Virus genome (UHGV): UHGV-1359478 | Source of the DNA: a virus | Length of the DNA: 28,912 nucleotides | Reading direction: 5' to 3' (one strand) | In this document: piece by piece, positions 1-5,552 of the stretch | How the letters are laid out: each line of letters opens with the position of its first letter | How positions within the stretch are numbered: position 1 is the stretch's first letter | Notes under the pieces: model-generated | Database searches by the model: none | Told to the model about the DNA's origin: nothing | What the model saw: the letters and a program-made list of their open reading frames with translations, nothing else | Made by a program: the position numbers and the translations under genes

Positions 1-193
1 AATTGATAAGCAATGCTTTTTTATAATGCCAACTTAGTATAAAAAAGCTGAACGACAAACAGAAAACATTGTAAATATCAATATGTTATAAAAGATTTAG
101 TCTAAATAATAGACTACATAATACTACAAAACACAACATATCCAGTCACTATGAATCAACCACTTAGATGGTATTAGTGACCTGTAACAGAGC
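1..193. other. attP: lambda-type attP region: P' arm (1-33), core (34-48), P arm with arm-type Int sites (49-~193)
   Basis: Reverse complement of 1-50 reads CAGCTTTTTTATACTAAGTTGGCATTATAAAAAAGCATTGCTTATCAATT, matching my memory of lambda attP core plus P' arm. Arm-type Int-site-like motifs CAGTCACTAT (143-152) and CAGGTCACTAATA (rc of 172-184). AT-rich. Confidence 0.75.
34..48. other. 15-bp att common core (GCTTTTTTATACTAA on the minus strand)
   Basis: Exact 15/15 match to the lambda core sequence as I remember it; flanked by an 11-bp inverted copy at 15-25. Confidence 0.75.
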
Positions 194-194
194 A

Positions 195-235
195 TTAGCG
201 CAAGGTGATTTTTTGTCTTCTTGCGCTAATTTTTT
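195..235 (+). terminator. Rho-independent terminator, tI/sib-like (would terminate int-direction transcripts coming through att)
   Basis: 10-bp perfect inverted repeat TTAGCGCAAG (195-204) / CTTGCGCTAA (220-229) followed by TTTTTT (230-235). Position relative to att matches lambda sib/tI. Confidence 0.5.
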
Positions 236-348
236 GTCAATGCACTGGGTTAGTTGAATTTACAACCATGCTCAGTATCTCGATAAGCGCAGGTAGATGA
301 TGCAGTGGTGGGCTGATTACATCGATGGTCGTGCAGGAGTGTAAGCCA

Positions 349-1380
349 TTACGCGAATTCTTCCACGATCGCCATGCCAGTAGCACCATCACCACCGGTA
401 AATGCCGTACCGGTAAACCCAAGGTCATACGCGCCACCACCACCGGATCCGGGAGCTGCGCCAGCAATACCGGCCTGAGAACCCGCCCGGCCACCGCCGC
501 CAAAATACGACGCCCCGCCGTTGCCCGTCAGAAGGCTTGAGCCTGTCTGTCCATCTGAGCCGGTACCACCGTTGATCCTGATATCTCCGGTCGCCGCCGT
601 ACCTCCGGCGCCGCCGGCGGTATTGGACACGCCTGACTTCACGCCGCCTTTCCCGCCAGGAGCTGAGAACAGGCTGGCAAACGAGGTGGCCCCACCATCC
701 GCACCACTTACTGCGCCAACTCCACCCTTACCACCCTTGCCGACAGTAATCGCATAAGAACTGGCAGCAGACAGGTCAACCCATACGATAATGGTCGCGC
801 CCGCGCCGCCGCCAGCACCGGAGAAGGTTTCGGTGTTATTAGATGCCTGGCACCCGCCACCGCCGCCACCGCCTCCGACCAACGTTACTTTTGCATAACG
901 GGCCAGAGGAGAGCGCGTATAGGTTCCGTTTGCATAGAACGCTTTTGGAGCGCCAAGAGAACGCCCGACAAAACCAGAGGAATCAGATATTCCGAGGTTA
1001 TAACGGGCTTCATTTACCGCATCCTCACCGGCATCTTTAATTTCTGACAGGTTATTGCTGATCTGCAGGAAAGATAATAAAGACCCGGCGGTCATTAAAT
1101 TCGCAACAATGTCATTCGTTGACCATACACGTGCCGTAGTTCCTTCCTGACCACGAATTACTGTCATCACGTCACCGGATACAGACGTGACGTGCATAAT
1201 TTCAGAAATTGTTTTCGTGGCCGCGTCGGTTATCGTTAATTTGAAATAACTCTGCCCTGATACAGGGGACGGGAATAAAGACCCCGCTCCAGTACCCACG
1301 GTAATAACGGTAGCGGACGCGCTAATACCCGCAGCGAGAACACTCTTTGCGTTATTATTGGCTAATAGCTTCAGCGCCAT
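349..1380 (-). CDS. Tail fiber protein 2: N-terminal anchor domain shared with fiber 1, glycine-rich C-terminal region
   Basis: 343-aa ORF. First ~100 aa align with the N-terminus of the 961-aa fiber (MAL.LLA.NNA.S.LA..ISA...GTGA...P...G.SYFKLT.TDAAT...GD..T..R.QEGT.AR.W..ND.VAN.MTA). C-terminal half is long Gly/Ala/Ser/Thr runs including a G8 run. Confidence 0.7.
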   Translation of the reverse strand: MALKLLANNNAKSVLAAGISASATVITVGTGAGSLFPSPVSGQSYFKLTITDAATKTISEIMHVTSVSGDVMTVIRGQEGTTARVWSTNDIVANLMTAGSLLSFLQISNNLSEIKDAGEDAVNEARYNLGISDSSGFVGRSLGAPKAFYANGTYTRSPLARYAKVTLVGGGGGGGGCQASNNTETFSGAGGGAGATIIVWVDLSAASSYAITVGKGGKGGVGAVSGADGGATSFASLFSAPGGKGGVKSGVSNTAGGAGGTAATGDIRINGGTGSDGQTGSSLLTGNGGASYFGGGGRAGSQAGIAGAAPGSGGGGAYDLGFTGTAFTGGDGATGMAIVEEFA

Positions 1381-1435: not shown

Positions 1436-1711
1436 TCACGACGCCGATGACAGTAACATCGTCCAGGGCTNNNNNNNNNNNNNNNNNNNNNNNNNNNNNN
1501 NNNNNNNNNNNNNNNNNNNNNNNNNNNNNNNNNNNNNNNNNNNNNNNNNNNNNNNNNNNNNTTGGCTACCCTGCTTTGGCTTCAGGGAGATATCCAGTAC
1601 AACGTAACCACCAGATCGCTCGAAGACGAGCGTATTTGGACCGACATTGCAGATCGAGTTAACCGTTAATCGCTGTTCCGTGTAGTCCGTCGCCGGTGAT
1701 GGAAAGCCCAT
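1436..1711 (-). CDS. Hypothetical protein, interrupted by the assembly gap (true length unknown)
   Basis: ATG at 1711..1709 overlaps the stop of the upstream gene (TAATG); GGGGAGGG Shine-Dalgarno 7 nt upstream. The ORF runs through the N run at 1471-1561. Confidence 0.35.
   Translation of the reverse strand: MGFPSPATDYTEQRLTVNSICNVGPNTLVFERSGGYVVLDISLKPKQGSQXXXXXXXXXXXXXXXXXXXXXXXXXXXXXXXPWTMLLSSAS
1471..1561. other. Assembly gap (91 N)
   Basis: Run of n characters in the sequence. Confidence 0.99.
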
Positions 1712-2338: not shown

Positions 2339-5224
2339 TTATGCTGCAGAGTAATATTTATCTCCGAATATGAGATTGGCAATCTTCCTTGCCGCGACTT
2401 TCAGCGTGTAGTCGAAAGTTACGGTGTACCCGTTATCGTTCATGTGGTTGTAGTTCCCAACCGGGACGTTATATACCGACGAGTAGCCGCCCACCTCTAC
2501 GCCATACTTAAAGAACGACTTTTCACAATCGGCGAGGAACGCGCCTTTTTGACGTGCGACGACCCTTTGCATATTATTCACCATTTCGAACCGCACATCC
2601 CCCTGCACCTTAACACCGCTGCCGGACCAGTCTTTTGTTACAAAGGAAACTGACGGTGCAGGGTAAAGAATATCCTCAGCGATGGACTGCAGGTTAACGT
2701 GCCGGATCGCTGTCGAGTAGCTTCCACTTGCCGGGATTGCCTCCTGGACAGTTATGGTATTCCGGTCAGAGGAAATGGCTGTGATAGTGTAGTTGCCGGC
2801 GTTGTCTCCGCTTTCTACGCGCAGAGTATGCCCTGGCTTCAGAATATCGCCGCCATAATTCGGGTTAGCAAAGTTACTTTGCGTGATAGTGTTAGCGACT
2901 GCGTCAAAGACATAATTACTTGTTACATTATATGTCCTAACTGGCCAGAACAGTGGGTTTCCGCCGGGGATTGTGGGATACGTTTGGGACATTTCTACGT
3001 TATGGTGCGGCGTAGTACAGATGATCGGTATCGCCCCCCGTGCCAGGCACAGGTCAACCAGCTCCTCTAGCGTCCGTTTCTGCCCCGGGAAAGTGAGTCC
3101 CATGTTGAAGTTGCCAACAGGTGCATCATTCATGCCGCCAACAATCAAAACAAAGTCAGAGGTTGAATAAGGCGAATTAGCTAACTGGGCAGCGAACTGC
3201 TGGAATGCCTGGGTCGGTATGCACTGGTTATCATCGATGATGTCGAACTCGCCATACTGCTTAAGCTCTTCCTTCAAGGCGTTGACGAACAGCGTGTTCG
3301 GAGCATAAGGAGCACCCGCCGCTCCGCCGCCAGTGGAACCAGCCCCAACACCCACAGAAGGCCCAATGGACGTACAAATTATCTGGCGCTTTGTGACGGT
3401 CTTTACCCCCGCGGACCAAGTTATAGCACCGAATGGCGACTGGTCTGAAGATACCCCGGTGCCCACGAGTTTATCCGCCAGAGCAGCATAAGGGTCTGTC
3501 AGCGCCCCCTTGAGGGTCGTAACGTCTTTTGAGAGGGTCTGTATATCTGTGGTTGGATCACCGGCATACAACAGCTTAAAGTTATTCTGCGGAGAGCCAC
3601 GGTATTGCACAGTGGCTGGCATTGCCGCCCGCAGTTCTCCACCAGTTAGCGCAGTATTCGCCCCTTTGAATAAGTTACGCGTGACTGTGTTACCGTACAT
3701 GTCGGTGATGACAAGAGTCATAGCACCTGTATTTGCAGCAACTGGCTCAAAAGTAAGCTGAGTTCCATCTCCAAGTAACCCGGGAATTGTTAATGCTACT
3801 GAGTTAGGACTGGTAGCATCACTGGTAACAGTTGCCTTTGAATAACCATTAAGTACACGACTTCTGTCAGCCGGGTAGGTCAGCATCCGAAAATCTGCTG
3901 ATGAAAAATTAAATTTGATTAAATACGTGTAGCCCGCTACCAAATCTCCCGCAGCGACGTTGGTCCCGTTATTTTGCTTAATCTGCCTCGCCGTACCACC
4001 ATTAACGGAAAGAGTTGGCGTGCGGGTTATATTAGTGGCGCTTGGCGTAAAAAGAAAGACACGATCAGACGCAACAATTCCAGGGATTGCAGATGCGGTA
4101 CCGGAATAGGCATCTCCAGTATTAGCAACGCCAGACAATAACGCTACGCTATTTAATTCAAGCGTGGAAATTCTTGACGCAAGTTCAGCAGCTACTGGGC
4201 CGGATGCCACAAGGACAAAATTGTTAGCAGTCCCAGTGCGGAATTCCATCAGTGCGGGCTGATTGAGAAGCAACTCATTCCCAACTAAAGCTGCATTATT
4301 TTGTTTCTGTATTGCCCGAGTAACCGAGTTCCCCCTGGCATCTGTCACGGTAACGCTAACAGCCGCCGTATTCAAAATAGGAGACAGGAAATAAATCAAA
4401 CTGCCATCCACTAATAATCCGGGGATAGTGATAGCAATGGTATTAGCCGCACCGCTACTCACAGCTGTAGCAGACTGGTAACCCATTGGCATTGCGGATG
4501 GCATTTTCCGTCCAGTAGGCTGCAGCGTTCCTGAGGTGTTAATAACCTCAATCGCAAGAGTTGCGTCGTCAGCGCTTCGATAATACGCGGTTGATCCGAT
4601 GGGGATATTTCCAGCGTCTGCATCAGCCTGCGCAGCCGCCAGCGTAGGGAATTCGCGTATGGTATTAGTTATAGATCCCTGTCCGGGGAACTCAGCAACC
4701 TCTTGTGCTACGCCTGAGTTATTTTTGTAATAACGGAAAGCAAGGACATTTCCTGTCCCCTGGGGAACGCGGAAGTATTGCCCGCTCGTCGTCGCTGCAA
4801 GTCCAGCCGCCGTATCAGCAAAGGTTGATTTATTGTCACCAAACTCCGACGCGCTAAGTGCATATCCCTGCGCCTCTTCCGCTGAATCAGATGCCTGTTT
4901 TGCAAAATCAGCGATCACATTCAGCGTGTCAGCGGTCATCATGTTGGCAACCATATCATTGGCCGCCCACGCTCGCGCCAGCGTCCCTTCCTGTGCGCGT
5001 TCAATCGTGAAGATGTCTCCAGCCTTGGCTGTCACGTTCACGATCTCAACCTGTGAGCCAGTGGCGGCATCGGTGAGAGTGAGCTTAAAGTAACTCTCGC
5101 CTGCCACAGCATCAGGGAACTCGGCACCAGTTCCAGCGCTAACGATCAGCGACGTGTCGGTTGCGCTGATAGCAGAAGCCAGCGTGCTTTCTGCGTTGTT
5201 TGTAGCCAAAAGGGTTAGTGCCAT
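2339..5224 (-). CDS. Tail fiber protein 1 (961 aa): shared N-terminal anchor, three internal tandem repeats, C-terminal domain with a GxND motif (possible SGNH-type esterase)
   Basis: Long ORF; likely start is ATG at 5224 with a GGAGGA Shine-Dalgarno (the track ORF starts 7 codons earlier at a non-ATG). N-terminus homologous to fiber 2. Repeated ~90-aa units containing IPGLL.DG...GN.VTR. C-terminal LIVGGMNDA motif. Confidence 0.8.
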   Translation of the reverse strand: MALTLLATNNAESTLASAISATDTSLIVSAGTGAEFPDAVAGESYFKLTLTDAATGSQVEIVNVTAKAGDIFTIERAQEGTLARAWAANDMVANMMTADTLNVIADFAKQASDSAEEAQGYALSASEFGDNKSTFADTAAGLAATTSGQYFRVPQGTGNVLAFRYYKNNSGVAQEVAEFPGQGSITNTIREFPTLAAAQADADAGNIPIGSTAYYRSADDATLAIEVINTSGTLQPTGRKMPSAMPMGYQSATAVSSGAANTIAITIPGLLVDGSLIYFLSPILNTAAVSVTVTDARGNSVTRAIQKQNNAALVGNELLLNQPALMEFRTGTANNFVLVASGPVAAELASRISTLELNSVALLSGVANTGDAYSGTASAIPGIVASDRVFLFTPSATNITRTPTLSVNGGTARQIKQNNGTNVAAGDLVAGYTYLIKFNFSSADFRMLTYPADRSRVLNGYSKATVTSDATSPNSVALTIPGLLGDGTQLTFEPVAANTGAMTLVITDMYGNTVTRNLFKGANTALTGGELRAAMPATVQYRGSPQNNFKLLYAGDPTTDIQTLSKDVTTLKGALTDPYAALADKLVGTGVSSDQSPFGAITWSAGVKTVTKRQIICTSIGPSVGVGAGSTGGGAAGAPYAPNTLFVNALKEELKQYGEFDIIDDNQCIPTQAFQQFAAQLANSPYSTSDFVLIVGGMNDAPVGNFNMGLTFPGQKRTLEELVDLCLARGAIPIICTTPHHNVEMSQTYPTIPGGNPLFWPVRTYNVTSNYVFDAVANTITQSNFANPNYGGDILKPGHTLRVESGDNAGNYTITAISSDRNTITVQEAIPASGSYSTAIRHVNLQSIAEDILYPAPSVSFVTKDWSGSGVKVQGDVRFEMVNNMQRVVARQKGAFLADCEKSFFKYGVEVGGYSSVYNVPVGNYNHMNDNGYTVTFDYTLKVAARKIANLIFGDKYYSAA

Positions 5225-5273: not shown

Positions 5274-5552
5274 ATGGTGAATATTATGAATAATGCTTCT
5301 ATTGCTATTTTAAAAATACTTTTAGGAACTCTATCTACTTTATTAATACTCCTTTCGTTCGCCTTGCTTATTATTTTATTTGGATTTCTTTTTCAGCAAG
5401 GAATGCCGCCAATAGATATGATAAAAATGTCATCCATTTTGTTTTTATCAATAGTTGTGCTGTATATAATTTGTCAGAGCGTTAAATCACATCTGTATAT
5501 AACAATAGATAATCGAGATAAAAACCTAATCAAATATCTCAACCGTGACTGA
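5274..5552 (+). CDS. Moron: small hydrophobic (two predicted TM helices) protein encoded antisense to the late operon in an AT-rich island
   Basis: 92-codon open frame in a strongly AT-rich 300-bp segment, where random ORFs of this length are unlikely. Product MNNASIAILKILLGTLSTLLILLSFALLIILFGFLF... is highly hydrophobic. No minus-strand ORF longer than 14 codons in this interval. Opposite strand to all neighbours. Confidence 0.5.
   Translation: MVNIMNNASIAILKILLGTLSTLLILLSFALLIILFGFLFQQGMPPIDMIKMSSILFLSIVVLYIICQSVKSHLYITIDNRDKNLIKYLNRD

Follow-up and report, generated by a model that had tools for sequence, protein, structure and literature searches.

The fibre gene

We analysed the UHGV virus genome UHGV-1359478 as a single stretch of 28,912 nucleotides (the window), the minus strand of which carries a tail fibre gene downstream of a baseplate J gene and a wedge-like gene. 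Several PHROG tail-fibre families match residues 1-250 of its product, with E-values down to 1.5e-50. The 961-amino-acid (aa) protein consists of an N-terminal anchor (residues 1 to ~247), a beta-rich shaft (248-595) and a C-terminal SGNH domain (596-961), and the enzyme domain studied here therefore belongs to a tail fibre encoded in the tail/baseplate module. An identical NCBI entry, WP_284627090.1, is named "hypothetical protein [Escherichia coli]", and its gene is located on a 391-kb contig of GCA_030178115.1, inside a prophage adjoining ybhB and bioA. The features of the fibre gene are collected in Table 1.

Table 1. Features of the tail fibre gene, with positions in the window
Feature	Residues	Window	Strand	Remark
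Tail fibre gene	961 aa + stop	2339..5224	-	From the open reading frame (ORF) list; ATG at 5224, stop 2339-2341
N-terminal virion-attachment and proximal shaft region	1-247	4484..5224	-	PHROG tail-fibre matches; similarity to second fibre
Shaft of repeated beta-rich modules	248-595	3440..4483	-	Collinear with WP_255896696.1 shaft; ends in short neck (DPYAALADKLVG)
Predicted SGNH/GDSL hydrolase domain including insert	596-961 (~365 residues)	2342..3439	-	
Block I	G621-P622-S623	3356..3364	-	S623, predicted nucleophile
Block II	N666-Q-C-I-P-T671	3212..3229	-	Oxyanion-hole position, Thr for Gly
Block III (GxND)	G697-M698-N699-D700	3125..3136	-	Alignment to solved SGNH enzymes
Inserted beta-strand domain (~85 residues)	~763-850	2675..2938	-	Model and split profile matches
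Block V	N924-Y-N-H927 (run N924-Y-N-H927-M-N-D-N-G-Y)	2444..2455	-	H927, predicted general base

The C-terminal part of the fibre is a predicted SGNH/GDSL hydrolase

A preliminary description of the sequence had proposed that the C-terminal part of the fibre is an SGNH-type esterase. Hidden Markov model (HMM) searches, profile-to-PDB comparison, structure prediction and fold search agree with this proposal, and esterase activity has been published for a fibre with 64% identity. On this profile and model evidence, the C-terminus of the fibre is an SGNH/GDSL hydrolase domain.

Homologue searches returned 11 close relatives at first and then 233 by profile search, and an exhaustive profile search yielded 236 clusters at 50% identity. 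PF13472 (Lipase_GDSL_2) was matched by 56 of 65 diverse family members (E<=0.001; best E-value 1.6e-17) and PF00657 by 16 of the 65. Moreover, the family profile matches solved SGNH/GDSL enzymes in the PDB by sequence, in alignments that place all four blocks (I, II, III and V).

The AlphaFold2 model of residues 596-961 built on a 65-sequence alignment reached a predicted local distance difference test (pLDDT) score of 94.1 and a predicted template modelling (pTM) score of 0.90, and shows a three-layer alpha/beta/alpha fold with a central parallel sheet. Foldseek comparison of the model with the PDB returned SGNH hydrolases, and the best structural matches in a viral library were SGNH hydrolase-type esterase domain proteins of Vibrio phage 1.249.B and Escherichia phage K30. 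An intramolecular chaperone and a beta-helix depolymerase were considered for the C-terminus and rejected, neither fold being among the structural matches. The prediction thus gave an SGNH fold in which catalytic residues can be placed, rather than the non-hydrolase fold that the preliminary description had named as the outcome speaking against an esterase. That description had set the domain at 2342-3388 (residues 613-961); all four blocks do lie inside this span, but the fold starts earlier, at about residue 596 (window 3439).

Comparison of the 349-codon domain with an 88.9%-identical homologue of Wanchaivirus PDP110P2 gave a nonsynonymous rate (dN) of 0.031, a synonymous rate (dS) of 0.55 and a dN/dS of 0.056, indicating strong purifying selection on the domain.

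Catalytic blocks and the inserted domain

In SGNH enzymes, the Ser usually stands at the start of helix 1 after strand 1, and the His in the loop leading into the final long helix. We counted column conservation among 97 aligned relatives for blocks I-III and among 133 for block V. In block I, G621 and S623 are invariant (97/97), and the family sequence GSSVGvG aligns to GDSLTAG of 9otv. S623 lies in the model at the N-terminus of helix 1, right after strand 1 (RQIICTSI; E18-25 and then H28-31 in model numbering). The middle residue of the block is non-canonical, being Ser in the family and Pro in the 961-aa fibre. IICTSIG (615-621) had been suggested as a variant block I; G621 indeed belongs to the block, but the predicted nucleophile is S623, within GPSVG. 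The Ser of the suggested segment, S619 ("CTS"), was rejected as a nucleophile, with Gly in 72 and Ser in 15 of the 97 relatives at its column.

Block II has the family consensus NqSvnGst, which aligns to NAGISGDT (9otv and TesA). N666 is kept in 85/97, and the column of T671 holds Gly in 91 and Thr in 4. Among the 39 close relatives with a scorable motif, 27 have IPTQ, and Thr671 is fixed across the subclade. The backbone amide of T671 could serve in the oxyanion hole despite the replacement of Gly by Thr.

The segment LIVGGMNDA, read as block III in the preliminary description, proved to be just that, at residues 693-701 (window 3122-3148). Conservation is high across its core (G697 and M698, 91/97 each; N699, 96/97; D700, 89/97), and the consensus GMNDg aligns to G(I/A/T)ND of 5jd3, 9otv and 4jgg, the matched motifs including GANDG, GINDV and GGND.

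In block V, H927 is kept in 131/133, while the position three residues before it varies (Glu 72, Gln 28, Asn 17, Asp 9). The family sequence eyvHPNllGh aligns to DRIHPNLAGH of 5jd3, and the block as a whole to the pattern D-x-x-H-P-N-x-x-G of solved SGNH enzymes, which puts Asn924 at the canonical Asp position, and in the model H927 lies in the loop ahead of the last long helix. NYNH is also present in WP_255896696.1, a homologue active on p-nitrophenyl acetate (pNPA), so that Asn for Asp in block V is compatible with activity. Blocks I and V had been called non-canonical. This holds for Pro622 and Asn924, but both blocks are recognisable once relatives are aligned (G621-P-S623 and N924-x-x-H927).

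The SGNH core is split by an insert between strand 4 and the helix preceding strand 5. In the model, the insert is a succession of beta strands at residues 766-843 (E171-E248 in model numbering), and many relatives match the profile as two pieces, skipping profile positions ~220-305, which correspond to residues 763-848. The PF13472 match of the fibre is only partial because this insert splits the core. The insert may have a substrate-binding or lid role.

Relation to known fibres and enzymes

SGNH-domain tail fibres are among the commonest enzymatic receptor-binding proteins of Klebsiella prophages and are predictors for several K-loci in genome-wide association studies (GWAS) (Otwinowska et al., PLoS Biol 2026, PMC13123978). 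Two of them, 164_08-KL2 and 174_38-KL55, hydrolyse pNPA and showed no depolymerase activity on 118 K-types (PMC13123978). SGNH-hydrolase domains are also reported to be prevalent among the tailspike enzymes predicted from K. pneumoniae prophages (PMC12115436).

In S5 Table of PMC13123978, 174_38 is an 839-aa protein with WP_255896696.1 as a 1.0/1.0 match and a split PF13472 at 487-638 and 728-818. WP_255896696.1 has 839 aa and matches the 399 printed residues of 174_38 at 100% identity, and we linked the two through the accession and this exact 399-aa prefix. A search for motif peptides in the PLoS Biol supplements, where 174_38 is printed in part, found none. Our fibre and 174_38-KL55 (WP_255896696.1) are 64% identical over 726 aa (our residues 248-958), that is, over the shaft and the whole SGNH domain; both are temperate-phage tail fibres with the same insert and the GGMNDA and NYNH motifs. 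In contrast, the N-terminal anchor (our residues 1-247) is non-homologous, and blocks I and II have GPS and Thr in our fibre but GSS and Gly in 174_38-KL55, which also carries loop insertions of 7 and 6 residues relative to ours. Moreover, the host of 174_38-KL55 is K. quasipneumoniae, with a GWAS association to KL55, whereas our fibre is found in E. coli.

Phage G7C gp63.1 (PDB 4QNL) is, according to Prokhorov et al. 2017 as cited in PMC13123978, a polysaccharide-deacetylating tailspike involved in receptor recognition or processing. It differs more from our fibre, with 12% identity, an origin in an N4-like virulent podovirus and a different overall architecture; on sequence evidence, it has neither the insert of our family nor the NxxH and GSS variants. 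Generic SGNH/GDSL and carbohydrate esterases (3rjt, 1yzf, 7ddy AlAXEase, Axe2 and the CE3 enzyme 2vpt) are single-domain proteins of ~200 aa with canonical GDS, Gly and DxxH, whereas our domain, with its GPS, Thr and NxxH, is fused to a fibre and interrupted by the ~85-aa insert. The SGNH proteins of Escherichia phage K30 (F8R4T7) and Vibrio phage 1.249.B (BFVD) match with E-values of 1.5e-16 and 1.2e-19 and a template modelling score of 0.62 on the query, and are ~20% identical to our domain.

phrog_18703 "tail fiber protein" matches residues 619-786 of the fibre (E-value 1.7e-13). RefSeq already gives the name "SGNH/GDSL hydrolase family protein" to a related copy in a complete E. coli genome; the complete-genome match H18 in E. 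coli is a disrupted or partly annotated copy. The finding is correct but ordinary in that this class of fibre has already been described, and shown to be active, in Klebsiella prophages.

Proposed function and alternatives

We estimate at roughly 85% the probability that the fibre is a receptor-binding protein with a C-terminal SGNH esterase that deacetylates an O-acetylated surface polysaccharide of the host. By analogy with the characterised fibres, the SGNH domain very probably removes acetyl groups from the host surface polysaccharide; from the same analogy we infer the esterase activity of this allele, its acetyl-ester substrate and its target polysaccharide.

In the model that we propose, the gene encodes the tail fibre of a temperate prophage of contractile-tail type that lies next to ybhB-bioA in an E. 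coli genome. The fibre would dock to the baseplate through its N-terminal ~250 residues, and the beta-rich shaft would project the SGNH esterase, which at the host surface would bind O-acetylated polysaccharide (capsule or O-antigen). S623 is predicted to attack the acetyl ester, with H927 as the general base activating S623 and N924 orienting H927, while two backbone amides (S623 and T671) and one side chain (N699) may stabilise the tetrahedral intermediate. Acetate would be released and the glycan backbone left intact, amounting to deacetylation instead of depolymerisation. Deacetylation may enable receptor recognition or processing by the fibre and so draw the virion to the cell surface, in the way shown for phage G7C gp63.1.

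Several observations count against a deacetylating esterase. Taken alone, the 349-aa fragment of the fibre matches PF13472 with an E-value of 1.9e-5 and 25.6 bits, below the gathering threshold of 32.9 bits and over profile positions 14-113 only, and an NCBIfam search of the fibre sequence alone gave no relevant match. Residue 622 is Pro (CCT) only in this allele, all relatives at at least 91% identity having Ser (TCT), and GPS occurs in just one other 50%-cluster representative. Furthermore, the fibre has Thr for Gly in block II and Asn as the triad acid. SGNH-fold proteins include acyltransferases, and the pNPA activity of the relative 174_38 does not pinpoint the natural substrate.

The sub-threshold Pfam score would suit a chance GxND motif in a C-terminus that is a non-enzymatic tip or an intramolecular chaperone. 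So would the single-sequence phmmer search of residues 575-961 against the PDB, which returned only noise, and a first AlphaFold2 model, which, on a shallow alignment of 17 close homologues, had a pLDDT of 55 and was left out of the fold search. We regard this explanation as extremely improbable, since the PF13472 matches of the family, the model with pLDDT 94.1 and the fold search refute it; the HMM check proposed in the preliminary description, though below threshold for the fibre alone, was positive for its relatives.

Another alternative replaces the polysaccharide O-acetylesterase by an acyl- or acetyltransferase, or by a lipase or deacylase acting on lipid A or membrane lipids. However, such enzymes score below esterases and carbohydrate esterases in our comparisons, a virion fibre working outside the cell lacks an acetyl donor, and the nearest characterised relatives, 174_38 and G7C gp63.1, are fibre-borne acetyl esterases. 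We therefore consider this alternative very unlikely.

The deviations within the blocks raise the question of whether this particular allele is active. S622P is a single T->C change in codon 3359-3361, immediately before the predicted catalytic Ser623, and Ser622 is also present in other members of the fibre's own 90% cluster; P622 could be neutral, activity-altering or a sequencing error. The SGNH fold might thus be kept in a catalytically impaired allele that serves mainly as a carbohydrate-binding (lectin-like) receptor-binding tip, an explanation favoured by the uniqueness of P622 among close relatives, by T671 where 91 of the 97 relatives have Gly, and by N924 in place of the usual Glu or Asp. 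Nevertheless, the allele retains S623, N699 and H927, the pNPA-active 174_38 homologue likewise has NxxH, and Thr671 is fixed throughout a subclade on which purifying selection is strong. In addition, it is normally a backbone amide that makes the oxyanion contact, GPS is natural in at least one other cluster, and Pro leaves the amide of the following Ser intact. On balance, we find impairment unlikely.

We hold as similarly doubtful the more specific idea that the allele is naturally altered, either because S622P together with Thr at the oxyanion Gly slows or abolishes turnover, giving a tight receptor-binding tip, or because specificity was retuned after a Klebsiella-type fibre moved into E. 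coli. If true, a receptor-destroying enzyme would have been turned into a receptor-binding tip, or its specificity retuned.

The esterase that we propose gives a functional annotation to a protein listed by NCBI as hypothetical and singles out S623, N699 and H927 as residues to mutate. It also extends the widespread class of SGNH-esterase tail fibres, described recently from temperate phages of Klebsiella, by an example from an E. coli prophage. Fibres of this class suggest that host range depends in part on the O-acetylation of capsule or O-antigen, and are useful for phage host prediction and engineering, although the concept and a close active homologue have already been published.

Anchor, shaft and prophage context

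At its 5' end, over roughly the first 100-240 codons, the fibre gene is 92-97% identical in DNA to E. coli prophage fibre genes that encode other C-terminal enzymes and bear the annotations sialate O-acetylesterase, SGNH/GDSL hydrolase or TolB family protein. This near-identity of 5' ends attached to differing enzymes suggests modular swapping of enzyme tips on one anchor. Within the shaft, residues ~263-342 and ~470-555 (window ~3560-4480, minus strand) form an internal duplication, ~37% identical via the WP_255896696.1 alignment. A Pfam scan of the N-terminal anchor, the shaft and the excised insert gave nothing useful, with no match for the shaft modules or the insert.

A second fibre-like ORF (343 aa; window 349-1380, minus strand) shares 49% identity at its N-terminus with the first 134 aa of the 961-aa fibre and ends in a glycine-rich domain (PF21722, E-value 3.4e-15). 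The phage apparently carries two receptor-binding proteins built on a common anchor module. The small ORFs separating the two fibre genes contain 91 N (masked or unresolved) at window 1471-1561, where genes of 79 and 105 aa are called on the NCBI contig.

The structural module of the prophage is ~95% identical in DNA to Klebsiella phages vB_Kpn_Chronis and RothC/D, except in the fibre region, where it differs. The prophage end borders ybhB (PF01161) and bioA (window 1-350; locus L004 8280-8886), a region that we take to surround the classical E. coli attachment site of lambda.

Between the baseplate-wedge and fibre genes, a 92-aa, strongly hydrophobic ORF (window 5274-5552, plus strand) lies in a patch of low GC content (~0.44). 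Its sole match is a weak one to TcpE (E-value 0.014), and it may be a moron or a membrane protein.
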